NCBI GenBank assembly: GCA_902803375.1
Contig: CADCPN010000060.1
Span: 1-55,959 of the forward strand
From: an uncultured Erysipelotrichaceae bacterium
GTDB taxonomy: Bacteria; Bacillota_I; Bacilli_A; RFN20; CAG-826
Direction of reading: 5' to 3'
DNA: 55,959 nt
Part shown: positions 19,069-39,562 of the stretch, piece by piece
Position numbering within the stretch: the stretch's first letter is position 1
Layout: every line of letters starts with the position of its first letter
Program-made: the position numbers and the translations under genes
Notes under the pieces: generated by a model
What the model saw: only the letters and a program-made list of their open reading frames with translations
Databases searched by the model: none
What the model was told of the DNA's origin: nothing

Positions 19069-22000
19069 TTACCGCTGATAAGAGAGGAAGGACATGAAGT
19101 TTTGGATCGTCATATTCTCGCCATATAGGCTGCCCTGGAGGTATTTGATGCCGACGTTGGTCGCGTATTTGGCTTCCTCTTCGCTAGAGATGCCATTGGC
19201 GGCGCCAAGAAGCTTAAGCTCCTGCAGCTCGCCAACGAGCTTGATGTAGGAGAGGGAGTCGGATTCGTTGGAAGTGGCGTCTTGAATCAAGCCAGAGGTG
19301 GTCTTGACGTAGGTGAGGCCAAGGTTCTTGAATCTGCTGAGGGGGCAGATGCCCATGGAGTAGCTTCTGACGCACCAATAAATGCCTAGGTCCTTCAAGG
19401 AAGGAAGCAGCTTCTCCAGCATCTCGGCATTCTCATTGGCGAACTCCGCGCTCATCGTTAGGGCAAGAGTTCCCGAAGGAATCTTGCTTTCTTCGATGAT
19501 GGAGCGAAGCTTGCTTGGGAAGTCATGGTCTAGATAGGTGAAGCCAGAGATATCAAGGGCAAGCGAATGGATGTTGAAATCGCGCAGCAGGCTATCCCTA
19601 TTTTCCTTATAGAAGGCAGCGACCTCGCGCAGGCCGATGTAGTCGATGGCCGCAGATAATCCCTGAGCCTCGGCAACGCGGTGCCACTCCGCCGTATGGA
19701 TCTTCTGGTGGCCCTCCCCTTCATAGGCGATGCGGAACTCAATGAAGGCAGGCTTCTTGGTCGCGCTATCGATGATCGGGGTGAGATGGAGGGTGCTTCT
19801 TCCGGTTTTGACGCTATCGGCGAGAAGATCGGCGATATAGTCGTCGCGGAAGGCGCATCTGGCCCTGGTGCGGCCGACTTCGACGAGCCTGCCCTGCCCC
19901 AAACTCGCGCTGCGCTCAAGCTCGGTCTTGATGAGGGAGATCGCCTCGAAGGAAGTGGGTGCTTCGTTTGGATAGGCGATGGCGCTATAGGAGTAGCGGG
20001 GCGAAAAGGCTTCGTTGCCGGCGTAAAGCGGGCCTTGAATCTGCTCAGCGACTTCTTCGACCGCGGTATATAGCTCGGTCTTGGAGGTGAAGCCAGTGAG
20101 CTTCAGAACAAGGGTCAAGCCATCGTAACGGTAGATGAGGTCATCATATCCCGCGCCTTGGATCGCTTTGACGATGCTCGTCATCATCGCGTTGGCGGAG
20201 AGAGAGGAGGAACGCTCAACGATCTCGTCTTTGTTAATTAGGCGGATAGAGAGCAAGTAGCCTTTGCCGTTAGCCTTGATCTCATGGGAGAGGTCGATGG
20301 ACAAAGCCTTAGAGTTGCGGATAAGGAGATTTTTATCGATAAGGGAGCTAGAGAGCTCGCTAGAAGCGGTCTCCTGCTCAAGGAGGATGGTGGTGAAGCC
20401 TTCGATGTCCGCGTTCTCGCCAAGCGAGGAAATCGTGGATTCCTTCATGGAGAGAGAAGGGATGACGCGCTTGCTGACGCCATGGGTAAGCGGGCACCAT
20501 TGGCAAGGGCTATCTTCCCCATAGATGGCTTTGTGGCAAAGTTGCCCAGGCTGGATGCCCGGCATCTTCTGATGCAACGAATCGGAGATGCGGGTGAGAC
20601 GGTAGCTTACCCTGTCGATCATGTAGAAGTACTTGCTGGAGTGGGTGGCGAAGGCGTTGAGGACGTTATAATAGGCGCCGCTACGCTCATTGAGGGCTAG
20701 ATGAAGCGTGGAGCTCGCTAGCAGCGGCGCGAATTCATGTAGCTTTTCTCGATGCAGAAGCGGGATCTCAATGCTCTCTTTGCCTAGAAGATAGACGAAG
20801 CCGTATTTGGTGTTCTGCCAGGCGATCGGGGAGATATAGACCGTCTTCATGCCGATGCTAGATAGCGTTCCTAGCATGTTGCGGGGCAAGCTTAGCGGGG
20901 AAGAGCAGACATAAGGGAAGTCCTTGACGCTTGCTTCATAGAAGGGGTCGAGGATGTAGGCGGGAATGCGCTTGCCAAGGCTAGAGAAGCCTTTGACATC
21001 GCCGCTGCGGGATTGCTCCAAGATAAGCTCATAGTCATCGGAGACGTTATGGTAGAGATAGGCGCCGCCGACATCGAAGCCGATCATGCCTTCATATAGG
21101 CGGAAGATTTCGGCGAGGGCTTCGTGGAGTTCCGGCGCGGTTTTGCTCGCCATGATTTTGCCGGTGCAGGCTTCGATGGCGTTAAGCGCGATGATGCGCC
21201 TGGTGTTCTCATTCTGGAGAGAAGGGCTATAGACCTTGCCGTCGCCATAGGAGATATTGACGCCACGGCCTTTATGGAGGGCGCTTTTGGCGGTGGAAAT
21301 CAAGGCGCTAGAAGGGACAAGGGGATAGACGGCTCCGCCGACGCTGCAGCCATAGACGTCCATGCGCGGGGAGTTCTTCTTGGTGATGGCCACCGCGAAG
21401 CTAGAGACGAAAGCCTCGATCTTCGACTGGAGGGAGATCTTATCTTCGATGCGGTAGACATAGCAGAGGTAGGTGCCATCATAATCCTTGCCGATCATCA
21501 CGCCGGGGAAGGAGTTGCGGATAGAGGAATATAGGCGGGAGTTAACCTCGGGTGGGATGGCCTCGGTCTTGCCTTCGGCGCGGATGGCCAAAATGCAGCT
21601 GCGGTAGCTGGGGTTATTCAAAACCTCAGCCGAGAGCATGCTGGCGAATTCATCGACGGTGAGAAGCTCTTTCGTCGGCGAGGACTTCTTGCTCTCTTCC
21701 TCCTCGTTTTTGGCGAGGACTTCATTGAAGTGGCTGACCGCCTCGTTGACGCGGTTCTGCATCAAGCGGATGGCGGCGCTTTTCCAGGCATTGCGCCCAA
21801 GGCGAATTGAGCCAGCGCGGAAGGAGGTGAGCTGATCGGAGATATTCTGCGATACGCTATCGAGTTCCTTCATCGTGCGGCGGTAAAAAAGGAATAGGAG
21901 GGCGGTGATGATGGTGGTGGAGGCGATGAGGAATGCCTGAACCGGATAGATCCAAGTCCAGTCATGGTTGACCCAAAGCAAGACGATGGAGATGGCAAGA

Positions 22001-22134
22001 AGCACGCCCTGCAGAAAGAGGCAAAGGAAGGCAAAGGCGAAGATGATCCTCGACTTCTTTGCTTTGCTTTCTTGCTCGTCTTTCTGGACGCGAGATGGTG
22101 AGGGGCGGAAGAAGAAATTTGCTTTACGTTTCAT
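19069..22134 (-). CDS. membrane protein with degenerate GGDEF, GAF, PAS-like, degenerate GGDEF and degenerate EAL domains
   Basis: 2 N-terminal TM; 'GKDYDGTY..SVGGAVYP' and 'YRYDGLTL..AIAYP' GGDEF-fold remnants; CHKAIYGEDSPCQWC; EAL fold with EFR in place of EAL, no DDFG, and C-terminal 'YLQGSLYG'. Start ATG 22134 after GGAGG. Confidence 0.75.
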   Translation of the reverse strand: MKRKANFFFRPSPSRVQKDEQESKAKKSRIIFAFAFLCLFLQGVLLAISIVLLWVNHDWTWIYPVQAFLIASTTIITALLFLFYRRTMKELDSVSQNISDQLTSFRAGSIRLGRNAWKSAAIRLMQNRVNEAVSHFNEVLAKNEEEESKKSSPTKELLTVDEFASMLSAEVLNNPSYRSCILAIRAEGKTEAIPPEVNSRLYSSIRNSFPGVMIGKDYDGTYLCYVYRIEDKISLQSKIEAFVSSFAVAITKKNSPRMDVYGCSVGGAVYPLVPSSALISTAKSALHKGRGVNISYGDGKVYSPSLQNENTRRIIALNAIEACTGKIMASKTAPELHEALAEIFRLYEGMIGFDVGGAYLYHNVSDDYELILEQSRSGDVKGFSSLGKRIPAYILDPFYEASVKDFPYVCSSPLSLPRNMLGTLSSIGMKTVYISPIAWQNTKYGFVYLLGKESIEIPLLHREKLHEFAPLLASSTLHLALNERSGAYYNVLNAFATHSSKYFYMIDRVSYRLTRISDSLHQKMPGIQPGQLCHKAIYGEDSPCQWCPLTHGVSKRVIPSLSMKESTISSLGENADIEGFTTILLEQETASSELSSSLIDKNLLIRNSKALSIDLSHEIKANGKGYLLSIRLINKDEIVERSSSLSANAMMTSIVKAIQGAGYDDLIYRYDGLTLVLKLTGFTSKTELYTAVEEVAEQIQGPLYAGNEAFSPRYSYSAIAYPNEAPTSFEAISLIKTELERSASLGQGRLVEVGRTRARCAFRDDYIADLLADSVKTGRSTLHLTPIIDSATKKPAFIEFRIAYEGEGHQKIHTAEWHRVAEAQGLSAAIDYIGLREVAAFYKENRDSLLRDFNIHSLALDISGFTYLDHDFPSKLRSIIEESKIPSGTLALTMSAEFANENAEMLEKLLPSLKDLGIYWCVRSYSMGICPLSRFKNLGLTYVKTTSGLIQDATSNESDSLSYIKLVGELQELKLLGAANGISSEEEAKYATNVGIKYLQGSLYGENMTIQNFMSFLSYQR

Positions 22135-22150
22135 ATTCTCTCTTCCCTCC

Positions 22151-22873
22151 TTACATCTTTTCGGAGTTAAGCAGGATGTTAAGGAGGATTCTGCCGATAT
22201 CCGGCATGGCCTCCAAGCCTTTTCTCCGATAGTTGAGCCTTTGCTCGTCGTTGCCTGGCTCATAGGCGATGACCTTTAAGGTCAATAAAGCGGTTGAATT
22301 GACGTGGCAGGCAAGCGCGATGCCGCCGCTGACGGTGTCATAGGCGCTGACCTTGGTGGAACCGGCGAAGTGACGGAGAAGGATGCCATCGAATTCTTCC
22401 TTATCCATATATTCTTTCTCGCCAGAGAGCATGAAGCCTCGCTCGATGTAGTGGCCGCCGCCGACTTCATAGGAAGCGGCTTCGGCTTTGGCGTTGACCT
22501 CGGTCGAGGCGTAGAAGAAGGGCGGCAGTCCCGGGATCTGGCCATATTGGTTTTCTCCGTCCCCAGAGAAATCGACGCCGCTAAGGTAATAGCGGTCAGC
22601 GATGAATAGGTCGCCCTGACGGAGGCTATCCTTCATGGAGGCGCAGTAGCCGACATTGATGACGATATAGGGGTCAAGAAGATGGATGAGCCTATCGGTG
22701 ACCATAGCGCTATATAGGTTATTGGGGCCTACCGCGCAGATACCGATCTGCTCGCTGCCGATGGTTCCCTTATAAAGGATGCGGCCCTCGCTTAGCCTTT
22801 CTTGGCTGGAGATCTCGCAGCGGGAGACGAAGTAGAGGATGGAATCCTCGCTTTCACCTACGAATAGGATCAT
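22151..22873 (-). CDS. MTA/SAH nucleosidase-fold protein (PNP_UDP_1), catalytic motifs altered
   Basis: VINVGYC..LRQGD, YGQIPGLPPFF. The expected (D/E)ME and RxISD motifs appear as DTV and KVIAY. Confidence 0.75.
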   Translation of the reverse strand: MILFVGESEDSILYFVSRCEISSQERLSEGRILYKGTIGSEQIGICAVGPNNLYSAMVTDRLIHLLDPYIVINVGYCASMKDSLRQGDLFIADRYYLSGVDFSGDGENQYGQIPGLPPFFYASTEVNAKAEAASYEVGGGHYIERGFMLSGEKEYMDKEEFDGILLRHFAGSTKVSAYDTVSGGIALACHVNSTALLTLKVIAYEPGNDEQRLNYRRKGLEAMPDIGRILLNILLNSEKM

Positions 22874-24443
22874 AAGCTATACGCGCCTCCTTTCGCTTTG
22901 GGCTCTCCTTTTTCTCGAAGGGGTTATCTTCTAGATACGCCTCGAAATGGGCGCGATCGCTTGGCCTGGAGTAGTAGTATCCCTGGATGCTATCTAGGTC
23001 TAGGGAGCGAAGGATGTCGGACTGGTGCTCGGTCTCAACGCCTTCGGCGATGACCTTCATGCCTAAAGCGTGGGCAAGGGAGATGATGGAGAGGACCATC
23101 GCCTTGGATTTGGCATCGACTTCAACGTCATCGACGAAGCTTTTATCGATCTTAAGGACATCGAAGGGGATGTTCTTCAAAGAGGACAAAGAGGAATAGC
23201 CGACGCCGAAGTCATCGATGGAGGTCGCAAAGCCCAAGCCTTTGACCTTGCGGATGATGGAGGAGATGAAGACGGTGTTATTAGCCGCCAAGGATTCGGT
23301 AAGCTCCATATCGATAGAGGTCGGATCGACGTTATGCTTCTTCATCGTATCGGAAAGGAAGGATATGAGGGAGGGGTCGTAGACGGAGCGTCTAGACAAG
23401 TTGACGGAGATGACGACTTTGCGGCGCTTCTCCTTGTTCCATTTCTCGATGTCCGCGCAGACGTGCTCGAATACGTAGTGGTCGATTTCGACGATCTTGC
23501 CGGAGTTCTCGCAATAGGGGATGAAGACGGCGGGCGGGAGAAGGCCGCGCTTAGGATGCTTCCAGCGGATAAGGGCTTCTGCGCCATAGAAGGCGTTCTT
23601 CTTGAGGCTATATTTTGCCTGGTAATAGATGACGAGCTCTTCGTTAGCGAGGGCTCTGGTGATCTCGGAGTCAAGCTCCTTCATGCGTGCGTTTTCCGCA
23701 AGCATAGATTGATCGTAGACAAGCAGGTCGCAAGAGATGCGGCTAGAGGCGTTATGCCAAAGGGCAAAGATGGTCTTTTCTAGCGCATCCGAGGGCTTTT
23801 CCTTGGCCTCGATCGGGTGAGCGCTAAGAAGGAAGGCGACATAGGGGATGTCGTCTCGCCTTTCGATGCTCTCGGTGAGGGTGAAGGCGAACTTTCTGAA
23901 GGAGTCTAGCTGATCATCGACGTTGCTCGCGTTGAAGTAGAGGATGTAGTTGTTGTTATGGTCGATGAAGAGGTGGAAGGTCGGGTCAAGGCCAAAAGCG
24001 GCCTTGACGCGCTCTAGCAGCAGTTCGTTAACCGAGTAGGTGAAGGCGGTGCCAAGGGAATTAAGGGTACCGCCGGCGTTGGTCTTAACGGCTAGGCCAA
24101 GCAGAAGCGGCACCGTGCCATCTTCGGCTTTCTTCCTTAGCCTATTGAGCTTGCCTAGCAAAGCGGCGTCATCTTCGACATACTGCTCATCGCTCCCGAA
24201 AAGAGAGCGCAGCCACGCCTTGGTTCTGACAAGGTTTGCTCTGGCATTGACCGTGACGGAGATGCCTAGCGACAGCAAAACGGAGCCAAGGTAAGCGAGG
24301 AAGGCAAGGTAGACGGAAGCGGCAGTCGGCAATAGCTTCGCGCCATTAAGAAGATTAACGACGACGAAGATGATGACCCCAAGAAGCGCGGAGGCGCCTA
24401 AAAGAAGGATTGCGAACAATGCTCTTAGTTTCTTTTCGCTCAT
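22854..24443 (-). CDS. membrane-anchored EAL-domain c-di-GMP phosphodiesterase with degenerate GGDEF
   Basis: YYQAK, GAEALIRW, SVNLS, ELTES, DDFGVGYSSL, KIDKSF, AEGVET and QGYYYSRP all intact; 2 N-terminal TM. Confidence 0.92.
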   Translation of the reverse strand: MSEKKLRALFAILLLGASALLGVIIFVVVNLLNGAKLLPTAASVYLAFLAYLGSVLLSLGISVTVNARANLVRTKAWLRSLFGSDEQYVEDDAALLGKLNRLRKKAEDGTVPLLLGLAVKTNAGGTLNSLGTAFTYSVNELLLERVKAAFGLDPTFHLFIDHNNNYILYFNASNVDDQLDSFRKFAFTLTESIERRDDIPYVAFLLSAHPIEAKEKPSDALEKTIFALWHNASSRISCDLLVYDQSMLAENARMKELDSEITRALANEELVIYYQAKYSLKKNAFYGAEALIRWKHPKRGLLPPAVFIPYCENSGKIVEIDHYVFEHVCADIEKWNKEKRRKVVISVNLSRRSVYDPSLISFLSDTMKKHNVDPTSIDMELTESLAANNTVFISSIIRKVKGLGFATSIDDFGVGYSSLSSLKNIPFDVLKIDKSFVDDVEVDAKSKAMVLSIISLAHALGMKVIAEGVETEHQSDILRSLDLDSIQGYYYSRPSDRAHFEAYLEDNPFEKKESPKRKEARIAYDPIRR

Positions 24444-25696
24444 TTGCTTTCTCCTTCCTGCGGGGTTTCCGCTTCGACAAGTGAATTGGCTTTAGCTTCC
24501 GCCTCAGCTTTTGCCTTGGCTTCCGCTCTTTCTTTTAGGATCTCTGCGCGCATCTCCTCTTTTAAGCGCTCCCTTTCTAGCTGCGCCTTGGTTTTCTCCC
24601 TTGGCTTAGTAGAGTCTTCGACTTTGACGCCTGCTTTCTTCTCTTGCTCGATTTGCTTACGAATCTGCTTTCGAAGGGCTTTCTTCAAGCGCTCCTTCTC
24701 TTTTTCCATCTCTTTCTTCATCTCTATCTTGTAGCTAAGCTTCGCGGTGAAGAGGTAGACGGCTTTCTCATCGTTAGGATCGATACCGGATTCCGCTATG
24801 GCCTTATCGATCTCTTCCTGCTCTTCTTTTGCTTCCGATTTAGCTGCCTTCACCGTATCGATGATGGAGCTGACGGCGATGAACAGCAGCGGAAGGAGGA
24901 CGAAGAGAGGATAGACCCAGGTGGCGTGACCGCCAGGGACGGCTGGGGAGACGAAGGAGAGGAAGGTTCCAAATCCTTCCGAGGCGAAGGTGACTTTGCC
25001 GACGACCTTGCTCTCAAGCACGGTTTCGTAATATTCCGGGGCCCAGAAGCCTTCGGATAGCTGCGCGTGGAGGTTATCGCCACGGGTGAGGAACATCCTT
25101 TCGCTGGAAGAGGAGTTTTTGACCGTGATGGCGCTTTTATTGGAGCCGATAGCCTTATAGAGGATGGTTTCGCCCGGTTCGACGATGGCTTTGACGCGGT
25201 GGGTATCAAGGGCGCCAAGCTTATCGTAATAGAAGGTGATGACGTCTCCGACTTTTATTGTCTTGGCATCGGTCTTCTCGATGATGACGCCGCTTCCTGC
25301 GCTGAAGTGGCCGATTTCATAATCATCGGCATTCTCCGCCGCCATTACGCGGTAGCATTCGTCCTTTTCGGAATCGGATACCAACGCAGAGCACTGCCCT
25401 TCGCTGGCCTCAGTATCGATGGCCATGGAGTCGGTCGCGACATAGAGGAAGGACTTTCCGAATACGCTGGGGACGCCATAAGGGGAAGTCTGCATCGAGA
25501 CGATCATGCTGCCCATGACGAAGAGCATGAAGGCGATGATGGCGCCAAGGATGATATCGATGGCCTTGGAGACCTTCTTCCTTCTTTCATCTAGCCTTTT
25601 CTCTTCGATAGGGGTAAGGGCTTTCTTTTGCTTCTTGGCTTTATTCTCTTGCGCGCCCGCGATGGGGGTAACGCCATTTTCTTTGTTTTCGTCCAT
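24440..25696 (-). CDS. sipW: SipW-like (S26B, ER-type) signal peptidase I with charged C-terminal tail
   Basis: VATDSM (catalytic Ser), VGDVITF, THRV (His), TRGDN, VVGKV; flanking TMs; K/E-rich coiled-coil tail. Confidence 0.8.
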   Translation of the reverse strand: MDENKENGVTPIAGAQENKAKKQKKALTPIEEKRLDERRKKVSKAIDIILGAIIAFMLFVMGSMIVSMQTSPYGVPSVFGKSFLYVATDSMAIDTEASEGQCSALVSDSEKDECYRVMAAENADDYEIGHFSAGSGVIIEKTDAKTIKVGDVITFYYDKLGALDTHRVKAIVEPGETILYKAIGSNKSAITVKNSSSSERMFLTRGDNLHAQLSEGFWAPEYYETVLESKVVGKVTFASEGFGTFLSFVSPAVPGGHATWVYPLFVLLPLLFIAVSSIIDTVKAAKSEAKEEQEEIDKAIAESGIDPNDEKAVYLFTAKLSYKIEMKKEMEKEKERLKKALRKQIRKQIEQEKKAGVKVEDSTKPREKTKAQLERERLKEEMRAEILKERAEAKAKAEAEAKANSLVEAETPQEGESK

Positions 25697-25700
25697 AACG

Positions 25701-28700
25701 TTACTTCATCTCCGCAGGTGTTTTGGGGGTGGCTAAAACGGCAACATCGTTCTTCTTCATGACTTCTTCGACTAGCGAGAGAGCGCGCTTACAAGAAAGA
25801 TCGCTGCGAACGCGGAATAGCATTGGGGTATCTTCTAGCTTCTTGCTGGAGTTTCTCTCTACCGGCAAGACGCTATCTTGGTAATCATCGGGGTTAAGGG
25901 CAAGGTTAAGCTTGATGTGCTTGCCGGAAAGCTGGATGAACAGTAGCCTCACCCTATGGGCGCTATAGAGGTCGCCCTTGATGGAAAGCCTCTCCGAGCA
26001 ATCATACTCGCAAGCCTTCTTACGGATGGTCTCTAACTTCTGCTTGAGGTCGGGATCGATGTTCTGCAGCTTTTCGAAGAAGGTAGCTTTCTTAATCTCC
26101 GGAACAAAGGACTTCTTTGCAGAAGCCTCTTCGCCAACGACAGGGGAGTCTTCCTCTTGCATAGGGGCTTCTCCTATAGGCTTAACTTCCCCAACGGGTT
26201 CTTCCGCCTTTTCATGCTCAATAGCAGGGGCTTCTCCAATAGCGGGGTTCTCCGCTTTTTCACCCATCTTGATCTCCTCTAGCTTCGGCTCTTTCCTAGA
26301 AAGGGGAGTGGAAGAGGCCTTCATGGTCTCTTCGATCAGGGTGAGGGCGCGCTTTAAGGACAAGTCAGATCTGACTCTAAGTAGCAGCGGGGTATCTGCA
26401 AGCTTCCTAGAGGTATTCTCCTCAACCGGCATCGTGGAGTCGGCGTAGTCTTTCGGGTTAAGGGCAAGGTTAACCTTGATGTGGTGGCCAGAAATGGTGA
26501 GGAAGACTAGTTTCTTCCTATGAGCGGAGAAGAGGTCTCCCTTGATGGAGACGCGTTCGGAAACATCATAGGAAGCGGCTTTATAACGAAGGGTATCGTA
26601 TTTGGCCTTAAGATCATCGTCGAGGTTGGCGTATTTCTCCTGGAAGGGAGTCTTCTTGATTTCGGGGACGGAGGAAGTGGAGGCAATAGGCGTGACTTCT
26701 GTAGCGGCGGGCTCTTCATCCGGTTGTTCTTCTTTGACCGGCTCTTCTACCTTCTCGGGTGTAGAGACAATGGCTTGCTCGGGTTTAGGCTCTTTAGCGG
26801 CAGGGGCAGCTTCTTTTTCTTCTACTTGAATCGGGGCGGCTGCTTTTGGGGTATCAAGAAGAGGCATGCCTTCGTTTTTGAACACTTCATCGATGAGGGA
26901 TAAGGCGCGGCGATAGGAAAGGTCGCTCTTAACGCGGAATAGCAGCGGGGTATCCGAAAGCTTCTTGGAGGTATTCTCCTCAACGGGGAGAGTGCTATCT
27001 TGATAGGCTTTGGGATCAAGGGCAAGGCTGACCTTGATATGACGTCCAGAGAGGGTGAGGAAGACAAGCCGCTTTCTATGCGCGGAGAAGAGGTCTCCTT
27101 TGATGGAGACGCGCTCAGACACATCATAGGAAAGGGCTCTTTCACGGAGTCCATCGAACTTCGCTTTGAGTTCATCCTCTTCGGATAGATTGAGGTATTT
27201 CTCCTGGAACGGCGTCTTCTTGATCTCGGGGACGAAAGAAGGGGCTATGGCCTCGACGGGGGTTGGAACCTCAACGGGGTTCGTTTCGACGACAGATGCC
27301 TCAACGGGCTTGCTGATATAGACGGTCTTCTCGATGACCTTGGTGTCTTTGATGAGAATGGTCCTGACTTTCTCTGGAAGCGGGGAGACGGTGCCAGGAT
27401 AGGCGATTTGAGGAGCGAATTCTGGAGCAGTGCGAACAATCTTCGCCTCTTCTTCAAGCTTAGCTTCTTCTTTGGCGGAGAGCTTAACTGGGGAGAAAGA
27501 GGTTGGATATAGGCCTTGCTTAGCAAGGGTGGGCTTAGATTTAACGATGACGGGTTCTTCGCCGCTATAGACCTGCTTACCTAGACCGAAAGAGGCCATA
27601 GCCTCATCGACAAGGGCTTTGGCACGCCTAAGAGCGAGGTCGCTTCTGACACGGAAATCTAACGGCAATCTCTTGCCAAGGGCCCCTTTGGTTGAAGAGA
27701 CCGGCATTGCCGAATCTTCATATGAGGCGGGATCAAGAGCGAGGTTAAGCTTGATGTGCTTGCCAGAGATGCTAAGGAAGACGATGGCTTTCCTTCTAAA
27801 GGAGGTAAGCTCGCCTTTGCTGTTTCTGACGGAAGAGGCACCACTGAAAGAAGCGATGTATTCGTGAAGCTGCCGGTATTTGGAGGTAACTTCGTCATTG
27901 GAGAGGAATAGCTTCTCCAAGAAGGTATGGGAATTGATATCGGCGTAGAAAGGCTTTGCAGGCGGTTCTTTAAGCGGGGAGAGTGTGCCTGGGAAATTGC
28001 CTTGGATCGCATAGGTTGGCGTAGCGCGCTTAATGCGTTCGATCTCAGCAAGCCTAGCCTCATTCTCACGTCTCACCTCGTCTTTATCTCTTATCGGCGA
28101 GAGGAAAAGCGGGGCGGCCCCAGAGTAAAAGGAAACCGCGCCATAGCCGTCGCTGATGTGGGTATCCATCTCTTCGACGCCATAGGGGAGTCCAAGCTTA
28201 TCGAGTTCCGCCTTGCGGATGACCTTGCGCCTAGCGGCTTCCAGGCGACGCTCTTCTTCAGAACGGCGTTTGGCAAGCTCTTCTTCTTTGCGCCTAGCCT
28301 CTTCTTCGGCTTTAAGCTTAGCTTCAAGCTCAGCAAGGCGCATGGCCTCTTCTTGACGTCTAGCCTCTTCTTCGGCCTTGCGAAGGCGCTGCGCGGCTTC
28401 TTCGGCGATATCTTTGGCTTTCTGCTGCTCGATCGCGTCATCGACAAGGGCTTTCTTGATGTGGTCCTCATTCCATTTCTGACGTAGATGCTGCCTCTCT
28501 TTATGGACCTCATCGGGGGTCGGGGTAAGCGGAGTATCCGGCATCGGACGTCTCTCGGGGAATTGATCGTAGAGGAATTTGCCATCGTAGAAAGTTTCGT
28601 CTTCGAGGGTGAAAAGCACCTTCGGGGTGATCTTCTTGGTGGTCTTCTTGAGGTCTTTGAGGGCCCGATTCTTCAAAACGCTGCTGCGAAGGGTGAGCAT

Positions 28701-29627
28701 CTCTGCCGCGAGAAGGGCATAGATCTCGTTGAAGTAGTCATCGTCGTAATTGGCTTCGGTCTCGGTGACCTCATAAGAGACGCCGAGTTCGGTATAGGAG
28801 TCAAGGAACTGCCACAAAACATAGGCCGCATGGTAGTCGGGGTTTTTGACGATCATGTTGGTCTGGTGGATCGGGTTAGCAACCGGCTTAGAGCCTTTCA
28901 TAAGCTCCATGAAGGGGGATTTGGTGTAATAGGCGCAACGCTCTCTTAAAGAGTAGAGGCGTCTAAGCAGGTCTTCATTGCGCTCGGCATTGCCTTCATC
29001 AGCGGAAGGGGTGGATAGCTTAATGCGGCTATCGACTTCATAAAGAGCGCCATCGATATCGGTGTTAGTATGCAAAAGGAGAAGATCGGAGTCTCTGGTC
29101 TCACCGTGGTCTTTGATGTAGTTAACGCGCTTCTCAATGAAGATGGCAGCCTTCTTGATGAGGGTAGCCACGAAGCGGTTTTCATAGATCCAGTAGTCGA
29201 CGTCAGACTCAATGGAGAGAAGCTTCATCGGGGTGACATTGCCTTCCCTATCGACGTCATAGACGAACTGGGTGTGGGAGGCAAGGTGAGTGACGGTCTC
29301 GGAGTTGATCTTCTTAGCGCGTCCGGCATCCATAAGGGTCGGATCCTGCTTAATGAAGGAACGCGGGGCGGCGATGATGGCATCAAGATGGCTGAAGCCC
29401 TCTTCTAGTTTTTCGACGAAAAGAGGGTCGTAGGATCTGATTTCAACTCGGGATTTCTGTCCGACGTAGTTCTTGCCTTCCTTCTGGACTTCTAACAAAA
29501 GTCGCTGAAACTGCTTGGAGTTGTTGACCAAGTTCTTCACGCGCCTTAAATACGCTTCTTGCGCAGCGGTTAAGTCGTCAGGTTTTTTGCTTTTGTTGGA
29601 TGCCATTATTGAATTAGGGAAAGCCAC
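25701..29627 (-). CDS. DUF2357 (McrC N-terminal-like) protein with coiled coil and four C-terminal repeats
   Basis: 'DYWIYENRFVATLI', 'TNMIVKNPDYHAAYVLW' are DUF2357-like; EEEARR coiled coil; four ~110-aa repeats; follows an McrB-like gene. Alternative start ATG 29606. Confidence 0.75.
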   Translation of the reverse strand: MAFPNSIMASNKSKKPDDLTAAQEAYLRRVKNLVNNSKQFQRLLLEVQKEGKNYVGQKSRVEIRSYDPLFVEKLEEGFSHLDAIIAAPRSFIKQDPTLMDAGRAKKINSETVTHLASHTQFVYDVDREGNVTPMKLLSIESDVDYWIYENRFVATLIKKAAIFIEKRVNYIKDHGETRDSDLLLLHTNTDIDGALYEVDSRIKLSTPSADEGNAERNEDLLRRLYSLRERCAYYTKSPFMELMKGSKPVANPIHQTNMIVKNPDYHAAYVLWQFLDSYTELGVSYEVTETEANYDDDYFNEIYALLAAEMLTLRSSVLKNRALKDLKKTTKKITPKVLFTLEDETFYDGKFLYDQFPERRPMPDTPLTPTPDEVHKERQHLRQKWNEDHIKKALVDDAIEQQKAKDIAEEAAQRLRKAEEEARRQEEAMRLAELEAKLKAEEEARRKEEELAKRRSEEERRLEAARRKVIRKAELDKLGLPYGVEEMDTHISDGYGAVSFYSGAAPLFLSPIRDKDEVRRENEARLAEIERIKRATPTYAIQGNFPGTLSPLKEPPAKPFYADINSHTFLEKLFLSNDEVTSKYRQLHEYIASFSGASSVRNSKGELTSFRRKAIVFLSISGKHIKLNLALDPASYEDSAMPVSSTKGALGKRLPLDFRVRSDLALRRAKALVDEAMASFGLGKQVYSGEEPVIVKSKPTLAKQGLYPTSFSPVKLSAKEEAKLEEEAKIVRTAPEFAPQIAYPGTVSPLPEKVRTILIKDTKVIEKTVYISKPVEASVVETNPVEVPTPVEAIAPSFVPEIKKTPFQEKYLNLSEEDELKAKFDGLRERALSYDVSERVSIKGDLFSAHRKRLVFLTLSGRHIKVSLALDPKAYQDSTLPVEENTSKKLSDTPLLFRVKSDLSYRRALSLIDEVFKNEGMPLLDTPKAAAPIQVEEKEAAPAAKEPKPEQAIVSTPEKVEEPVKEEQPDEEPAATEVTPIASTSSVPEIKKTPFQEKYANLDDDLKAKYDTLRYKAASYDVSERVSIKGDLFSAHRKKLVFLTISGHHIKVNLALNPKDYADSTMPVEENTSRKLADTPLLLRVRSDLSLKRALTLIEETMKASSTPLSRKEPKLEEIKMGEKAENPAIGEAPAIEHEKAEEPVGEVKPIGEAPMQEEDSPVVGEEASAKKSFVPEIKKATFFEKLQNIDPDLKQKLETIRKKACEYDCSERLSIKGDLYSAHRVRLLFIQLSGKHIKLNLALNPDDYQDSVLPVERNSSKKLEDTPMLFRVRSDLSCKRALSLVEEVMKKNDVAVLATPKTPAEMK
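25750..27930 (-). repeat. four intragenic ~110-codon domain repeats
   Basis: Approx. 27597-27930, 26875-27240, 26320-26670 and 25750-26110; consensus F.EK..SERVSIKGDLFSAHRK.LVFLT.SG.HIK..LAL.P..Y.DS..PVE.N.SKKL.DTPLLFRV.SDLS..RAL.LI.E. Confidence 0.9.
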
Positions 29628-29676
29628 GTGTGGGCATTCGTAATTTAGGGATGAGATTTTTATTTAGGTGAAGGCA

Positions 29677-31278
29677 TTAGCCGTTCATCTTAAGGAGCAA
29701 TTTGATCTTGGCTTTGGAACGCTTGAATTCGCCTTTGCCGAAGAGCTTAGTGAGCTCCTGGTCAAGGGCAAGCAATTCATCGCGGAGGAAGGCGACGTTA
29801 AGGACTTCGAATTTCTTCAAGATCTTGGACTGGAAGATGTAGTCGACGGCCTCTAGCTCAGTGCCGCCGCAAGCGACGTAGCAAGGAACGAAGTCGCCTA
29901 GCTGCTTCATGATACGGTTACCGAAGGCTAGGCGGAAATTCTCGATGACGAAGGTATCAAGCTGCTGGAACTTCGCTAGGGTAGCGGAGGAGAGCGGATG
30001 GTCTATCTTCGCCTGGTCAAATAGGCCTTTGAGGTACTGATATGGAAGCGGGAGGGCCTCGGTATAGGGGGCTTCGAAAGCGATGCCCTTGTTGTCGAAG
30101 AATAGCGACATTGCGCGGTCATAGACCTTATCGGTGATGGTGAAGGTGGAGTCATCGTTATTCGCGGTGCCGATGAACCAGATGTTCTGCGGGATAAGCA
30201 AATGGCCTTCATGCAAGTGCTTGGGGTCGTCTGCGCGAGGGGAAGCGACAAGGTCGATATTCCATTCGGCGACGTTAGGCATTTCCATGATGGATAGGAA
30301 CTCAGCGAAGTAGTACTCGATACGGGCCAAGTTCATTTCGTCGAGGACGACGAGGGAGATGTCGTCTCTATAGGTTGCCTCGTAGATGGCGCGAAGGAAC
30401 TCGGTTTCGGTGAACTTCTTAGTGAAGTCGTTGTAGTAGCCAAGTAGCTCTGCCCGGTCATGCCAAGAGGGCTGAACGGAGCAGATGGTGGCGTTATGCT
30501 TGAAGAAGCGGCCTAGAGCGTAGGGAAGGGAGGTTTTACCGGTACCAGAGATACCTTCGAGAATGACGATCTTACCAGTGCCCATGGAGGCGAAGAACTG
30601 ACGGATGGTATCGGTGGTGTAATATAGGCCCATCTGAGAAGCGGCGAAGTTACGGAATCTATCGACGATGCCGACAAGGTCGATGGTCGCGGCGTCATCC
30701 GGAAGCTTGGTAATCTCGTGGTTATTGGCGTACTTCTCGTCGACCATAGTCAAACGCGGGAAGCGGATATCGCCGTTTTCTTCCATTGGGGAGTCGCCAT
30801 TATTAACGACGTCATCGCCATTTTTGTTGCGAATGGTGAGCTCGCCGGAGGCATTGACGGCTTCGTTGACATTCGGACGGACGGGAGCGGCGCCGCCGAG
30901 AGTCTCAATCTGAAGCTGAAGGATGCGGTCTTTTTCCGCGACGGCCTGATAAAGCTCAAGGTTAAGCTCTTCAATCTGGCCCTGGAGCTGCTCAACGCTA
31001 GCTTGCTTCTTATAGAAACGGACATATTTTCTGATGAGCCAGAAAATCAAATACCCAAGGGCGCCGATTAAGCCGACCAAAAGGATGGCGAAAAGCGCAA
31101 AGAAAATCCAACCGCCAACGCCAAACTCCGGAGAATAGGTTCCGAAGATGTTGCTGTAGTCGGAGAATTCAGCGGGAACCTTGGCCCAAGGATATGCGAA
31201 GCGATCGCTGAACCACTGGCCGAGGTTGCGGAAGAATGCAATAAGCATTTCCTTCAGGTATGTAAAGTATGCTGACAT
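29677..31278 (-). CDS. McrB-like AAA+ NTPase with N-terminal TM helix and coiled coil
   Basis: Walker A GISGTGKT, VQPSWHDRAELLGYYN, Walker B VVLDEMNLAR, GTANNDD (McrB NxxD), TDKVYDRA, FGNR; hydrophobic segment at about aa 56-82. Confidence 0.88.
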   Translation of the reverse strand: MSAYFTYLKEMLIAFFRNLGQWFSDRFAYPWAKVPAEFSDYSNIFGTYSPEFGVGGWIFFALFAILLVGLIGALGYLIFWLIRKYVRFYKKQASVEQLQGQIEELNLELYQAVAEKDRILQLQIETLGGAAPVRPNVNEAVNASGELTIRNKNGDDVVNNGDSPMEENGDIRFPRLTMVDEKYANNHEITKLPDDAATIDLVGIVDRFRNFAASQMGLYYTTDTIRQFFASMGTGKIVILEGISGTGKTSLPYALGRFFKHNATICSVQPSWHDRAELLGYYNDFTKKFTETEFLRAIYEATYRDDISLVVLDEMNLARIEYYFAEFLSIMEMPNVAEWNIDLVASPRADDPKHLHEGHLLIPQNIWFIGTANNDDSTFTITDKVYDRAMSLFFDNKGIAFEAPYTEALPLPYQYLKGLFDQAKIDHPLSSATLAKFQQLDTFVIENFRLAFGNRIMKQLGDFVPCYVACGGTELEAVDYIFQSKILKKFEVLNVAFLRDELLALDQELTKLFGKGEFKRSKAKIKLLLKMNG

Positions 31279-31299: not shown

Positions 31300-32442
31300 T
31301 TAGCGAATGGCGTCCATGAGGCCTTCGAATTCTAAGTCAAGGTTGAAGGCGCCATAACCAATCGAATTGGTCATGTCCTTATCCCAGCCTTCGAGGTAAA
31401 TGGTCACGACTAGACGGGTGTCTTTGCCGCTCTCTAGCCTTGCTAGAGGCTTTGTTAAACTTGGGTCGTTGTAGTTTTGCCCCTCTTTGAGGGTCAAATC
31501 ACTAATAGAATATGCTGATTCGTGGCGAAACGGTAGTCGATTTCCGTTTGCTTCTTTTGTTTTGTCAACGTTATATTTGCGAATTCCGGCTTTGTGGATA
31601 GCGTGGAAGCTATCTTTCTTAACGTCGGGGTTCTCATCGAGGTCCGAAGCTAATGGGTCGTCATCGAAGACAATTTGGGCGCCATCGAGATATTCGCCAT
31701 AGACGAGCTCTTTGCCAGTATTAGCGTCGAAGTCGTAGTATTGGTCGGCTCCGCGAATGTTCAAAGGCCCACCGAAAACGGTGTCTTCGTCTGGGTCGGG
31801 ATTCAAAACGATATAGCTTTCCGTTGATAAGAAGGAGATGCGTGCTGCATTGACGACGTTATCGAGATCTTCGACGGAAACGCCGAGCTTGCCGTTCGAG
31901 CGTAAACGGTTAACGGTATCAAGGTTTTTTTCATGATCAGCCGACAGGGAAAAACCGTCACCGAGGTAAAGGTAACCATCCCAACTGGATTTAATGAAGA
32001 ACTCCAGCTGAATGTAGCTCTCATCGGTAGCAAGGGGCGGCATCTCCGTGCCGTCTACGTTCTGGTAAGAGCCACGGAAAGAGGGGAATCCGGTTTTGGG
32101 ATCGAAAGACTCGTTGTTCCAAAGCGACTGGTACATTCCGGACACTTCATCAAGAGGCTTACCCTCATAATATGCGTCGGAGTGGCTTGCAATGTAGGAG
32201 CTTCCTATTCCTTCTTGGTAATCGATTGCTCCATTGGGGTTTTTCATTCCGATAAGCATTTCGTTGGAAAGATCCATATACATATTGAGAATGCTGACCG
32301 TGGCAGAAGAAGACAAGTCATAGAAGGCGTAGGTCGCCGTAACGGAAGTCGCAAGAGTCGCCGCAAATGCCAAAAGCCCAGCCGCGAGTAGTTTACGGTT
32401 GGGCGTGTAAGAATGTTTTTTGTAACTATTCTTGCTGGACAT
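31300..32442 (-). CDS. secreted fibre-subunit-like protein with SipW-type signal peptide
   Basis: Basic N-terminus, h-region, 'TATYAFY'; C-terminal RLVVTIYLEGWDKD shared with paralogues. Confidence 0.7.
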   Translation of the reverse strand: MSSKNSYKKHSYTPNRKLLAAGLLAFAATLATSVTATYAFYDLSSSATVSILNMYMDLSNEMLIGMKNPNGAIDYQEGIGSSYIASHSDAYYEGKPLDEVSGMYQSLWNNESFDPKTGFPSFRGSYQNVDGTEMPPLATDESYIQLEFFIKSSWDGYLYLGDGFSLSADHEKNLDTVNRLRSNGKLGVSVEDLDNVVNAARISFLSTESYIVLNPDPDEDTVFGGPLNIRGADQYYDFDANTGKELVYGEYLDGAQIVFDDDPLASDLDENPDVKKDSFHAIHKAGIRKYNVDKTKEANGNRLPFRHESAYSISDLTLKEGQNYNDPSLTKPLARLESGKDTRLVVTIYLEGWDKDMTNSIGYGAFNLDLEFEGLMDAIR

Positions 32443-32469
32443 TTTCGTGAATTTCTTAGAAATCCGTTA

Positions 32470-33573
32470 TCAGTTAACGGTGAAATTGATGCCAAACGCG
32501 AGTTCAACGCCTTGGGGCGGCGTGCCATAGCAGTCCGGATCATAGCCTTCAAGCCAGCAGACAACGGTATAGCGCATGATTCCAGAAGTCGGCAATGGAA
32601 TGAACTTCTTGGAGAAGAGCTCTCTATCGGAGGTGATGAATGGCTCGCAGTATCCCCGTAGAGCAGGGACGCTTTCTAGGCTTGGATCGCGGTACTTGTA
32701 TTTGGTGGGATTCAGCTGCGGATTGTAGAACTGACTAATGCATTCTCTACGATCGTCATAAGAAGGATCCGACTCATAGCCAGCCTTGGTGTTCCAACTG
32801 CTGGTGTTGGCGGCGCCATAGACGGTGAAGTCGTGCGTGGTAGAAGCGGGACTAGTGACGTCGGTGACTTCGTTTTCGAAAACCATGACGCGAAGATAGT
32901 CGCTTGGTTGAGTGGCTTTATTGGTTGGCTCGTGATAGTAAGTCAAAGCCATATCCATGTTGTAGGAGATTTCCTTAAAAGCTTTATTCTTTAAATAGAA
33001 GGTATAAACGATCGCACGATCGACGGCTACATCTTCGCCGTTAGACGTCATCTTGCCATGCAAAGAGTTTTCGCCAGTAAGATGATCACCGGTTGGAGTG
33101 AAGTGGCCTTCATTGTTTTTGACCGGGTCACCGTTGACGTCGCGTTCTACGTCCCCATCAAAGAATTCGGAGCAGTAGTTATAGACGTCATCAGCCGCCG
33201 TAGGAACGGCGGAATTGAGGCCGTTTGCTTTGAGGATAGACTTCTCCTCAGAGGCAACGGGCAATAGCGAAAGCGCGATCTGGCCATCGCTTTGCCTGGG
33301 ATCAACGCGGATAGTGAAATTACCGGAGACGCGACCTAGGAAAGCAATGATGCTTAAAGCGGTCACACCGACGGTGCCAATGCCTGCGATGATCAAAGCT
33401 ATCTTCTTATTACGACGCCTGCGCGCGTATTTGGCGCCTTTTGCGTAACGCTGATTATACTTCGGGTCCATATAACTTGGACCATTCTGCTTGGGAGCGT
33501 TAGTTGCGGATGGGGTCGATGAAGAAGAAGGCTCGTTGCCAGGGTTAGGGTTTTGGATCTTATCCTTCGCCAA
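32470..33573 (-). CDS. membrane-anchored fibre-subunit-like protein
   Basis: TTG start after AGGAGG; RRRRNKK plus a single TM; LRVMVF and RYTVVCWLEGYDPDC motifs shared with 31300 and 35873. Confidence 0.7.
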   Translation of the reverse strand: MAKDKIQNPNPGNEPSSSSTPSATNAPKQNGPSYMDPKYNQRYAKGAKYARRRRNKKIALIIAGIGTVGVTALSIIAFLGRVSGNFTIRVDPRQSDGQIALSLLPVASEEKSILKANGLNSAVPTAADDVYNYCSEFFDGDVERDVNGDPVKNNEGHFTPTGDHLTGENSLHGKMTSNGEDVAVDRAIVYTFYLKNKAFKEISYNMDMALTYYHEPTNKATQPSDYLRVMVFENEVTDVTSPASTTHDFTVYGAANTSSWNTKAGYESDPSYDDRRECISQFYNPQLNPTKYKYRDPSLESVPALRGYCEPFITSDRELFSKKFIPLPTSGIMRYTVVCWLEGYDPDCYGTPPQGVELAFGINFTVN

Positions 33574-34878: not shown

Positions 34879-35548
34879 ATGAAAAAATCAAAGAAGCTCA
34901 AGATCGCCACGATGGCGGCCCACGCCGGTGCTGCGACCACCGGAACCTTTGCTTGGCTTGTCGCCAATTCCCAAGCCGCTGTCGCGGATATGAAAATCTC
35001 TGTAAAGACAGGCGGAACCTTCCTAATTATCAAGAAGAATTCTTTCGATTCTGGCAACAAATCCGTTTCTTTCACTGGCACCGATAAAAGCCTATTTCGG
35101 TGTGCAATTGAAGAAGGGGCCGTTGACCTTTCTAAATTTACTAGCGGGTATACCGCTGCAGGAACTAGCCGTCTCGATGGAACGGAAAATAAGGATAACC
35201 ATGCTTCTTTGGTTGCCTTTGATGACTATGTTTAGAAGAACCCTGCTTACATTGCCTTTACTAAAGGTTCCGTTCCTTTCGGCGAACTGAAGGTTATTGC
35301 TCCAAGCTTTGCTGATGGAACTGGTAGCGCCTCTAGACTCGAATTTGTTGTCAACGGCGCTAAAAAGGGATCGCTTAGCCAGGCAACCCAGGCCTCCAGC
35401 ATCACGCTTGACGATACCGGCCTTGGCAACAAAGAAGAGGAAGTTGCTTTCCGGATAGGAATCGCACGGAACGATGGAATCTACACACGGTCTTACCTCC
35501 TGTTGTCTTTCCCTCGCTTTCAACGTTGCCGATCCCGGTAAGGCTTAA
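34879..35548 (+). pseudogene. degenerate paralogue of the 35873 fibre subunit
   Basis: Same MKKSKKL...TFAW start but shortened h-region; in-frame TAG at 35233 with the frame open for about 100 more codons; plausible C-terminus LSLAFNVADPGKA* in the +1 frame. Confidence 0.65.
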
Positions 35549-35872
35549 TTTAAAAATTTATCCTGGGCTCATGGCCAATTCGATAAGTCCTTTTTATTAA
35601 AAAGAGATGAATCAAAGAGGCTTGAAGGAATTTAAGAAGCGCTAAAGAAACGCTAACAAAAAAACGTTTACCACTTTATTTTGAAAACTTCCTCTTTATA
35701 TACTTTGATTGCTTCAAAAGCGGAAATGTCTGCCCAGACTATAAAGTGTATGGAGCATTGCCTGAGTCGTATAAGTGCGATGAATTGAAATCCATTAGAA
35801 TCCCGTTGCCGAAAAGCAACAATTTTTTTGTAGATAATTCAGAGCCTAAAGCTCACAAGGAACAAAAATAAA

Positions 35873-36778
35873 ATGAAAAAATCTAAGAAACTTATGATCG
35901 CTGCCATGGCAGCCCTCACTGCTGGCGTTGCCGGCGCCGCTGGAACCTCCACCTTCGCTTGGTTCTCTGTTAACAATAAGGTCACCGTTTCTGGCATGAA
36001 GGTCCAGACCAAAGTCAGCAGCAACCTTTTGATTGCCAATTCTGCCTTAGACAAAGCTGCCCAGGAAGAAGAAACCGCTTTCTCCACTGGTTTGAGCGCT
36101 ACTATGGAAACTGCTACTCTTGAACCGGTTTCCACTATTGATGGCAAAAAGTTCTTCTATACCGTTGGCGCCACCGCTACCGGCGACGCGGCCGAAGATA
36201 AGTACACTGCTTATAATGCTATTGAGGTTCCGACTACCGAAGAATTAAAAGCTTTCAACACAGCTTATGGCAACGAAGCCGGCAAGGCTGTTGGCTATAT
36301 TGACTATGTCTTCCAGCTCAAGGCCGTTAATGCCGATACCGCTAAACCTGAGTCCATCAAACTCACTAAGCTTGACTTGCTTTACACCAAGAAGGGTTCT
36401 GAAACTGGCCTTGCAAAGTCTTTCCGCGTTGCTTTCTTTGTCTCTGCTGCGAATACTATTGAAGCTGGTAGCGCGACTTTAAATGCCATCTATACTCCTT
36501 CCGGAGCCAAGAACTTCACTGAAGGACAGGCTGTTTCTTCCACCACCGCGACTGGCAAAGTTGCTTATCAGAGTGCTGCCAAGGATCTTGCTTCCGTTGC
36601 CGCTGGGAAGACCGAATATTATAAAGTCGTCGCTCGCCTCTGGATCGAAGGTGAAGATACTGAGTGCACCAACACCACCTTCGCTGAGATGACGGGCAAT
36701 TGGGCGCTCAACCTTGAGATGGTTCTCGGTGGAACCGCAGTTGGCGTCAGCAACCTCAATGTTGCCGCAGCCGCCTAA
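35873..36778 (+). CDS. probable major fibre subunit with SipW-type signal peptide
   Basis: MKKSKK, h-region, 'GTSTFAWF'; Ala/Thr-rich; FRVAFF and KVVARLWIEGEDTECTN; strongly biased codons (GCT/ACT/GTT); own terminator. Confidence 0.8.
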   Translation: MKKSKKLMIAAMAALTAGVAGAAGTSTFAWFSVNNKVTVSGMKVQTKVSSNLLIANSALDKAAQEEETAFSTGLSATMETATLEPVSTIDGKKFFYTVGATATGDAAEDKYTAYNAIEVPTTEELKAFNTAYGNEAGKAVGYIDYVFQLKAVNADTAKPESIKLTKLDLLYTKKGSETGLAKSFRVAFFVSAANTIEAGSATLNAIYTPSGAKNFTEGQAVSSTTATGKVAYQSAAKDLASVAAGKTEYYKVVARLWIEGEDTECTNTTFAEMTGNWALNLEMVLGGTAVGVSNLNVAAAA

Positions 36779-36797
36779 TAGCGAACACTAACTCTTC

Positions 36798-36830
36798 AGG
36801 CCCGCCGAAAGACGGGCCTTTCCTTTTGCT
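36798..36830 (+). terminator. intrinsic terminator
   Basis: AGGCCCG-CCGAAAGA-CGGGCCT followed by a T-rich run. Confidence 0.75.
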
Positions 36831-36865
36831 TTTTTGACCACTCTGTTTTATTATTCCGAGACTTT

Positions 36866-38299: not shown

Positions 38300-38611
38300 A
38301 AGCATTGCTTTGGTTACAGTTTCCAAAAACTAACATTCATTTGGAATAGGCTAAATATCGATACCGTTTTCGAAAACGAAAGATAGCAATGGAGATTATA
38401 GAATTGCTTCTGCGTTCTTTTTCCTTCTGTGTGCTTGATATTTTAGCCAACGTAAAATCAACAAAATCCAAAAAAGTTTCTATTTCCTAATTGCTCGTTT
38501 TAGACAATAAAAGCAAACCTATAATATTCCGTCAATTTGCTTTCTGAAAATACACGCAAAGAAGTTTTCTTATTTAACTTTGCAAAACAAATCGTTATTC
38601 TTTAGGAGATT

Positions 38612-38680
38612 AAAGGCAAACTTAACGTAAGTTAAGGACGCAAAGCTAGTAGGGTCCTAATAAGGGATAGCCAGTTGCTC
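38612..38680 (+). ncRNA. c-di-GMP-I (GEMM) riboswitch
   Basis: AAAG-GCAAA-CTTAAC-GTAA-GTTAAG-GACGCAAAGCT..GGGTCCTAA..GATAGCCAGTTGC; ends about 20 nt before ATG 38700. Confidence 0.88.
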
Positions 38681-38699
38681 AAATTGAGAAACGTAACCA

Positions 38700-39560: not shown

Positions 39561-39562
39561 AC

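Follow-up and report, generated by a model that had tools for sequence, protein, structure and literature searches.

The window analysed here is a stretch of 55,959 nucleotides from an uncultured Erysipelotrichaceae bacterium (contig CADCPN010000060.1 of assembly GCA_902803375.1, positions 1 to 55,959). On its minus strand, directly after a gene for an McrB-like GTPase, a long open reading frame (ORF) specifies a protein that resembles McrC at its N-terminus and that continues, where McrC has its nuclease half, with a charged helix, acidic linkers and four copies of a basic domain (Table 1). The frame opens with GTG. Nearly all homologues, however, take the residue that corresponds to M8 as their first, so that translation probably begins at the ATG at 29606, leaving 1301 residues. 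No obvious Shine-Dalgarno sequence lies 5′ of either codon (29560-29700, minus strand), and P0002, which is this protein as stored in the database, begins 32 residues further in. The array of four repeats is not an artefact of assembly, since it is found intact in contigs of two other studies, both of bovine-gut metagenomes according to their records: a contig of run X7 covers the entire gene with 107 substitutions, zero indels and zero joints, and a contig of X13, from a third study, covers all four repeats, again without indels or joints.

Table 1. Features of the McrC-like gene and of its closest neighbours in the window.
Feature	Positions	Strand	Residues	Remarks
Whole ORF (McrC-like protein)	25701..29627	-	1308 aa from GTG
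DUF2357 / McrC-N-like domain	28608..29606	-	aa 8-340	PF09823, AF2 model, McrC chains
E/K/R/A-rich charged helix	28194..28502	-	aa 376-478	composition and heptad test; weak TolA-like match
Pro-rich motif, copy 1	27975..28028	-	aa 534-551
Repeat 1 (R1), DUF5655/YjbR-like basic domain	27582..27950	-	aa 560-682	pI 9.6
Linker 1, with Pro-rich copies 2 (aa 696-713) and 3 (aa 732-749)	27240..27581	-	aa 683-796
Repeat 2 (R2)	26865..27239	-	aa 797-921	pI 8.8; the modelled copy (pLDDT 91.4)
Linker 2, acidic, Pro/Glu/Ala-rich	26676..26864	-	aa 922-984	pI 4.2
Repeat 3 (R3)	26310..26675	-	aa 985-1106	pI 9.3; lineage-specific duplicate of repeat 2
Linker 3, acidic	26112..26309	-	aa 1107-1172	pI 4.6
Repeat 4 (R4)	25743..26111	-	aa 1173-1295	pI 9.0
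McrB-like GTPase partner	29677..31278	-	533 aa	transmembrane helix and FtsB/DivIC-like short coiled coil
SipW-like signal peptidase	24440..25696	-	418 aa	two transmembrane helices, cytoplasmic E/K-rich tail
Two upstream genes	31300..33573	-	380 aa and 367 aa	membrane/leader-bearing, no catalogued family

A first-pass annotation of this stretch, made from the letters alone, had proposed that the N-terminus belongs with DUF2357 and McrC, and this assignment stands. The Pfam model of DUF2357 (PF09823) matches residues 1-361 taken alone with 32.8 bits (E 5.3e-8), above its cut-off of 23.3, while the whole protein reaches 20.5 bits, below that cut-off. An AlphaFold2 (AF2) model of the same segment was built with 30 homologues (pLDDT 74.6); when it was compared by VIA with 48,161 structures, the McrC chains 6hz4_M and 6ut5_G came second and third, with the longest alignments. 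The former aligns over 140 residues (model 66-281 against chain 34-189) with a Z of 8.4 and the latter over 138 residues with a Z of 8.2, which we take as supportive only, because such values are common for helical models. Genomic context points in the same direction: an McrB-like gene lies directly upstream in 78 of 80 loci from species-level genomes, these being the best of 598 candidate stretches, where absent neighbours are partly explained by contig ends. Other searches were silent or of little use, as PADLOC returned nothing for the McrC-like protein, NCBIfam returned a TolA-like match on the charged helix and nothing else, and profile searches of the Protein Data Bank (PDB) with the full-length homologue rows gave low-complexity or transmembrane (TM) matches only.

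The second half of the proposal, that the nuclease of McrC has been replaced, was borne out as well: as far as tested, we conclude that this half of McrC is absent. Family searches identified no PD-(D/E)xK family, either on the whole protein (E<=0.01) or on six fragments that comprise all of it except the low-complexity linkers (E<=10), and no invariant D...(D/E)xK pattern exists among the 30 homologues. Beyond residue 248, the AF2 model of residues 1-361 contains a single strand, and hence lacks the alpha-beta-beta-beta-alpha-beta core of the fold; as the VIA comparison barely covers 248-361, we deduce the absence of a nuclease fold in that segment from the model's secondary structure together with the family searches.

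What follows the N-terminal domain had been described as an E/K/A/R coiled coil, and here the description has to be revised. The segment 376-478 consists of 22% E, 14% K, 16% R and 17% A, with zero P or G. In the best heptad register, hydrophobic residues (L/I/V/M/F/W/Y) occupy merely 28% of the a/d positions, while 29 pairs of opposite charges are spaced i,i+4 within its 103 residues. Because of this paucity of hydrophobic a/d positions and this abundance of charge pairs, the segment is probably, if a crude test devised for this purpose is to be trusted, a single alpha-helix of the ER/K type, forming a stiff spacer, rather than a canonical coiled coil. Further on, a proline-rich motif does recur three times, as had been noticed. 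In its full form it is private to this protein (it is found in 2 of 121 stored family proteins, and both are the protein itself), and a shorter version, P-x-F-x-S-P, is also present in the two closest orthologues.

Repeats dominate the rest of the protein. Four domains of about 110 residues had been announced; a search with a profile derived from this same sequence does indeed find four, each of about 123 residues, and 35 columns of their alignment are invariant in all copies. R2, R3 and R4 share 63-75% of their amino acids with one another, and 43-47% with R1, in line with the earlier remark that they are much more alike (at the nucleotide level, R2-R4 are 64-75% identical). An AF2 model of repeat 2, computed with 44 sequences (pTM 0.82), begins with two helices, continues with an antiparallel sheet and closes with a long helix. 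Foldseek associates this model with the YdhG-like protein 9t2w, the DUF1801 protein 2oc6 and the YjbR protein 2fki, with a probability of 1.00 and E values of 0.008-0.03. VIA matches it to YjbR (Z 8.4, 95 residues aligned), 9t2w (Z 8.3, 106 residues) and DUF419 (2a1v, Z 7.7), and also to the DNA-binding domain of the T4 protein MotA (Z 6.5) and frataxins (about 6.4), a Z of about 8 lying within the common range of this tool.

Which superfamily this fold represents can be specified further. When 121 copies of the domain were aligned by hhalign with six DUF5655 proteins encoded by genomes of this class (four of the six Pfam-confirmed at 36-50 bits), the probability was 95.7%, with an E value of 8.6e-9 over 109 of 125 columns, to be compared with merely 39.6% for a DUF1801-like set. 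One relative in the family, P0145, scores 62.8 bits on the DUF5655 model itself, and in a language-model atlas the repeat falls to a cluster with DUF5655 in 15% of its members. The suggestion of a DUF5655/YjbR-like fold, originally offered as a guess, has thus gained substance: the alignments and the model support the view that the repeats, which fold in the manner of YjbR/YdhG, belong to the DUF5655 superfamily as a divergent branch not yet catalogued. A full-text literature search for 'DUF5655' retrieved nothing beyond an unrelated genome paper.

The company kept by this domain bears on what it may bind. Run against 1.84 billion proteins, the profile of the four repeats collected 2424 representative clusters at E<=1e-3, of which 1023 also pass E<=1e-10; in 300 domain copies taken from the 149 best representatives, the median isoelectric point (pI) is 9.64, with 94% of the copies above 9, and the median net charge is +8. 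Most carriers are membrane proteins in which the domain sits after the last hydrophobic segment, and the tail is placed in the cytoplasm because the anchors, in the sequences inspected, have basic residues on their C-terminal side. Two of these carriers are encoded in the very genome that codes for the McrC-like protein: in the first (contig C61, L005:616-1878, plus strand), of 420 residues, four TM helices are joined through an acidic linker to one DUF5655-like domain, and the second (contig C30, L006:1414-3354, minus strand), likewise a TM protein but longer, combines short acidic motifs that recur along it with one such domain at its C-terminus. Scanning 29 members of the family with Pfam identified a uL15-like domain (PF00828) at the C-terminal end of five, and DUF1508 on one. 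Four of these five uL15-like carriers are giant proteins with Beta_helix_3 repeats, and three also have Flg_new ectodomains; in the giants P0154, P0234, P0242 and P0249 (2097-4721 aa), this extracellular part is followed by TM segments, then by DUF5655-like domains, two or three in number, and by a uL15-like end, and P0218, with 584 residues, is an N-terminally anchored variant of the same tail. Finally, two of the DUF5655 reference proteins begin with a weakly recognized NucS-like nuclease domain.

Taken together, fold relatives, charge and domain company lead us to predict that the repeats bind a polyanion, most likely nucleic acid or ribosomes. The same features can be construed otherwise, with the repeats acting as protein- or membrane-binding modules, recognizing anionic lipids of the inner leaflet or the charged tails of the GTPase, of the peptidase or of other membrane proteins, and thereby clustering or scaffolding the machine. 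This is a possibility to be kept in mind, even if we regard it as unlikely. The fold class does include frataxin/CyaY, iron chaperones of the YdhG-like type and type III chaperones, the domain is almost always close to the membrane, and GTPase, McrC-like protein and peptidase all have charged helices able to associate. Yet in fold the domain comes closest to YjbR and DUF419, with the DNA-binding domain of MotA as a further match; moreover, it is found alongside a uL15-like, rRNA-binding domain, its DUF5655 reference proteins have nuclease-like partner domains, and there is no need of a tether of hundreds of residues to reach the membrane.

The tail is unevenly distributed among McrC-like proteins. 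Among the 121 stored proteins of the family, query included, repeats are absent from 116; there are four copies in the query and in its database copy, three in P0003, five in P0004 and three in P0116 (two of them N-terminal). In the 80 species loci, where the length of the relatives ranges from 453 to 1599 residues, the 3′ end of the gene is complete in 75, and one of these 75 has repeats, in five copies. Conversely, the McrC-like N-domain was found on 19 of the 149 best representatives of the repeat family, when counting only true-domain matches scoring above 200. A tree of 36 N-domains distributes the repeat-bearing forms over at least three separate branches, one of which is a distant clade where all 15 members have two to five copies. 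In a tree of 37 repeats, copies group according to the lineage of their carrier: the 13 copies of the clade of the window fall together, 12 of them from three proteins and one a single-domain fragment, P0147, nearly identical to the fifth repeat of P0004, and their nearest neighbours are the domains of small four-TM proteins. Instead of repeats, most relatives end in a short basic peptide. Indeed, 104 of the 116 repeat-less relatives – close kin, which should not be counted as independent – finish with 40 residues having a net charge of at least +5 (median +12), and the portion of the tail that precedes this basic end is net-acidic in 113 of the 116. Comparing sequences in this way suggests that the repeat tail is an add-on of this lineage, external to the core machine. 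Other endings exist. The distant homologues P0108 and P0110-P0118 end in a conserved module of about 50 residues (F-I-V-K-T ... G-G-K-V-V-K-L), and the common 737-residue forms P0009/P0098 in a very basic motif (Y-V-F-I-K-T-R-K-S ... L-K-G-K-L-K); no family corresponds to either.

The similarity of repeats 2-4 had been seen as the trace of a recent expansion. This is the case for R3, the nearest neighbour of which is R2 in the same protein (76% identity), and it does not apply to the other three copies, which have positional orthologues in P0003 (R1, 69%; R2, 82%; R4, 79% identity). This conservation matters for another account of the tail, according to which domain shuffling into a tolerant, disordered tail created a neutral or weakly selected decoration with no specific role for the motor. 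The variation in length among the 80 loci, the rarity of repeats there and the existence of a relative of 2247 residues devoid of DUF5655-like repeats (genome G183, L088:3613-10356, plus strand) would all fit such an account. We nevertheless hold it to be improbable: a decoration free to drift should not keep 35 positions invariant in four copies and motifs throughout its family, R1, R2 and R4 would not be retained as positional orthologues in P0003, at least three branches of the family have gained the domain independently, and strains about 97% identical, from other studies, show no frame-breaking change.

The McrC-like gene belongs to a conserved group of genes. Upstream, the GTPase has a hydrophobic stretch at about residues 55-83, followed by basic residues, a Q/E/L-rich helix and an AAA+ domain. 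Its match to DivIC (PF04977) is weak and below cut-off (E 0.0063), that to the PADLOC model PDC-M26A stands at 5.5e-40, and in the PDB its profile retrieves E. coli McrB as sole match (best E 3.8e-5, with three distinct sequences). Walker A, Walker B and the sequence G-T-A-N-N-D-D-S-T-F are invariant in 32 sequences; N-N-D-D can be read as NxD followed by D, the form described by Bell et al. (2024), while the ungapped alignment of HMMER to N-T-A-D of McrB would give NxxD. A predicted complex of two GTPase domains (residues 205-533) with residues 8-345 of the McrC-like protein, computed with alignments, had a score of 0.01, uninformative either way. Downstream, the peptidase matches the NCBIfam models of SipW (E 1.5e-11) and of the archaeal-type signal peptidase I (1.7e-9), in both cases below the curated cut-offs.

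Over the 80 loci, down to 33% identity, the same order is kept: a small TM protein, the 367-residue protein (51 loci), the 380-residue protein (59), the GTPase, the McrC-like gene and the SipW-like peptidase (58). Further downstream come, in order, an EAL protein (61), a phosphorylase-like protein (64) and a second EAL protein (46). In the window, the corresponding region (19069-24443, minus strand), after the peptidase, encodes EAL proteins of 529 and 1064 residues and a protein of the phosphorylase superfamily, in frames that overlap or abut; the presence of EAL proteins hints at a control of the module by cyclic di-GMP. Relatives of the N-domain are encoded in 586 of the 598 candidate stretches. 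The hosts of the best 80 loci are all uncultured Bacilli of the gut or rumen, labelled Erysipelotrichaceae, Mollicutes, Enteromonas etc., some of these labels being clearly wrong, and in the window's own genus the gene is present in five of six genomes. Two further observations may be recorded here. The divergent cluster at 34879-43450 (plus strand) encodes proteins with similar leaders, where a hydrophobic stretch is followed by an A-W-F-S-like motif, one of them 1295 residues long, and no Pfam or NCBIfam family fits them. The same genome also has a second McrB/McrC-like module (G000, contig C15, L087:4100-8705, minus strand), in which a 557-residue paralogue, 24% identical and without repeats, is flanked on both sides by GTPase paralogues (40% and 35%).

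A system of this kind already has a name. CoCoPALM designates, in the main text of Bell et al. (2024, eLife, PMC11090510), a clade of McrB GTPases of the NxD type, in which the GTPase is fused to a TM and coiled-coil domain resembling FtsB and is associated with proteins of the signal-peptidase family, with coiled coils on the McrB and McrC homologues alike, and with McrC homologues often devoid of a nuclease. About three sentences are devoted to it there, the matter being deferred to a later paper, and a full-text literature search for 'CoCoPALM' found this article and its preprint only. The operon of the window matches this description, and it is the repeat tail which is the new part.

The ancestry of the pair may nonetheless suggest that it is still engaged in defence, as an McrBC derivative similar to type IV restriction, where the repeats would read foreign DNA or RNA and a nuclease or another effector would act in trans. 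McrBC descent, the match of the GTPase to PDC-M26A, a candidate defence family of PADLOC, and a patchy distribution within the order would agree with this, as would the fact that relatives in the NxD clade, the CoCoNuTs, are predicted RNA-targeting defence systems in the text of the same article (PMC11090510). We deem it quite improbable. PADLOC finds nothing for the McrC-like protein or for its neighbours other than the GTPase; the neighbours that stay fixed over the 80 loci encode a signal peptidase, secreted proteins and EAL proteins, with neither nucleases nor methylases nor mobile genes among them; the GTPase is anchored in the membrane; and its identity across loci is 49-76%, to be set against 33-72% for the McrC-like N-domain, a slow evolution that is untypical of defence genes.

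With somewhat more confidence than doubt, we therefore favour the view that the protein serves a module of the CoCoPALM type as its McrC-like subunit, in which the tail is a multivalent tether that binds polyanions and is mounted on a membrane GTPase. The GTPase would be held in the membrane by its FtsB-like TM/coiled-coil segment, in one operon with the peptidase, the secreted proteins and the McrC-like subunit. By analogy with McrBC, the structures of which are summarised in PMC11090510, the N-terminal domain would dock on the GTPase ring and stimulate hydrolysis. The place of the nuclease half is taken by a charged helix of about 100 residues, flexible acidic linkers rich in proline and glutamate, and four basic domains. 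These domains may bind a cytoplasmic polyanion, most likely DNA, RNA or ribosomes, if fold relatives, charge and domain company are a guide, and the helix and linkers, which span several hundred residues, would make a long tether from this ligand to the membrane-bound machine of GTPase and peptidase. That the protein might be a multivalent adaptor for the membrane motor, as the first-pass annotation had it, fits this anatomy.

Several facts weigh against this interpretation and have to be placed on the other side of the balance. Foldseek found nothing in the PDB at E<=0.001 for the model of the N-domain, the McrC chain 6hz4_M appearing at E 0.13. The fold of the repeats is also that of frataxins and of other proteins that do not bind nucleic acid, and the Z values on which it was recognized are, as said above, of a common magnitude. 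At E<=10, none of the four repeats was matched by any Pfam family, DUF5655 (PF18899) included, and the PF18899 model yields no candidate in the whole genome. The role of the repeats would seem dispensable for the core system, because a single one of the 75 complete relatives in species genomes has them. Within a sample of the order, the gene itself is patchily distributed, being present in 76 of 201 genomes, or 50 of 140 of good quality. As for the secreted neighbours, a TasA-type identity was considered and is supported by no family model; since neither NCBIfam nor Pfam gave a family for these leader-bearing proteins, we do not call them TasA homologues.

The protein links two unexplained features of gut Firmicutes. 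The first is CoCoPALM, a widespread branch of McrBC that has apparently moved from DNA restriction to a role at the membrane; the second is the domain found at the cytoplasmic tail end of thousands of proteins of the surface and the membrane, and that here replaces, in four copies, a lost nuclease. Should the ligand turn out to be nucleic acid or ribosomes, we would learn to what the GTPase is connected on the cytoplasmic side, and the repeat, which is small, basic and folds well, offers a concrete handle for pulling this ligand down. One may go further and imagine, as a fairly long shot, that the DUF5655-like tail domain is a docking device shared by the surface machinery of Firmicutes (giant adhesins, small polytopic proteins and this McrC-like subunit), tying ribosomes or nucleic acid to sites of export and processing. 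Such a device, if real, would hard-wire translation to export under the control of a GTPase.

It remains to situate this protein with respect to the systems that it resembles. In common with the description of CoCoPALM in the main text of Bell et al. (PMC11090510), we find an McrB-like GTPase with an FtsB-like TM/coiled-coil segment, an adjoining gene of the signal-peptidase family, an McrC homologue without nuclease, and charged helical segments on the McrB and McrC homologues. It differs from that description in that the coiled coil of the McrC homologue fails our crude heptad test, and in that the DUF5655-like tail has no place in it; supplementary file 1 may list such fusions. With the McrC of E. 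coli (6hz4, chain M) and of T. gammatolerans (6ut5, chain G), the protein shares a DUF2357 N-domain and a gene located directly after that of an McrB-type GTPase. Unlike E. coli McrC, it has no PD-(D/E)xK half and has about 970 additional residues, made of helix, linkers and four DUF5655-like domains, while the partner GTPase is anchored in the membrane and lacks a domain for reading DNA. The repeats have the alpha/beta sandwich fold of DUF5655 (PF18899), of YjbR/MmcQ-DUF419 (2fki, 2a1v) and of YdhG-like DUF1801 proteins (2oc6, 9t2w); these stand alone or follow a NucS-like domain, whereas the branch of the window is strongly basic, arranged in tandem and located on the cytoplasmic tails of membrane proteins. 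A further likeness is to the tail cassette of the membrane and giant surface proteins of Firmicutes, which often has a uL15-like end, with the same domain family and the same layout of an acidic linker followed by a basic domain; here, however, without the uL15-like domain, this cassette is carried by the soluble, McrC-like partner of a GTPase.

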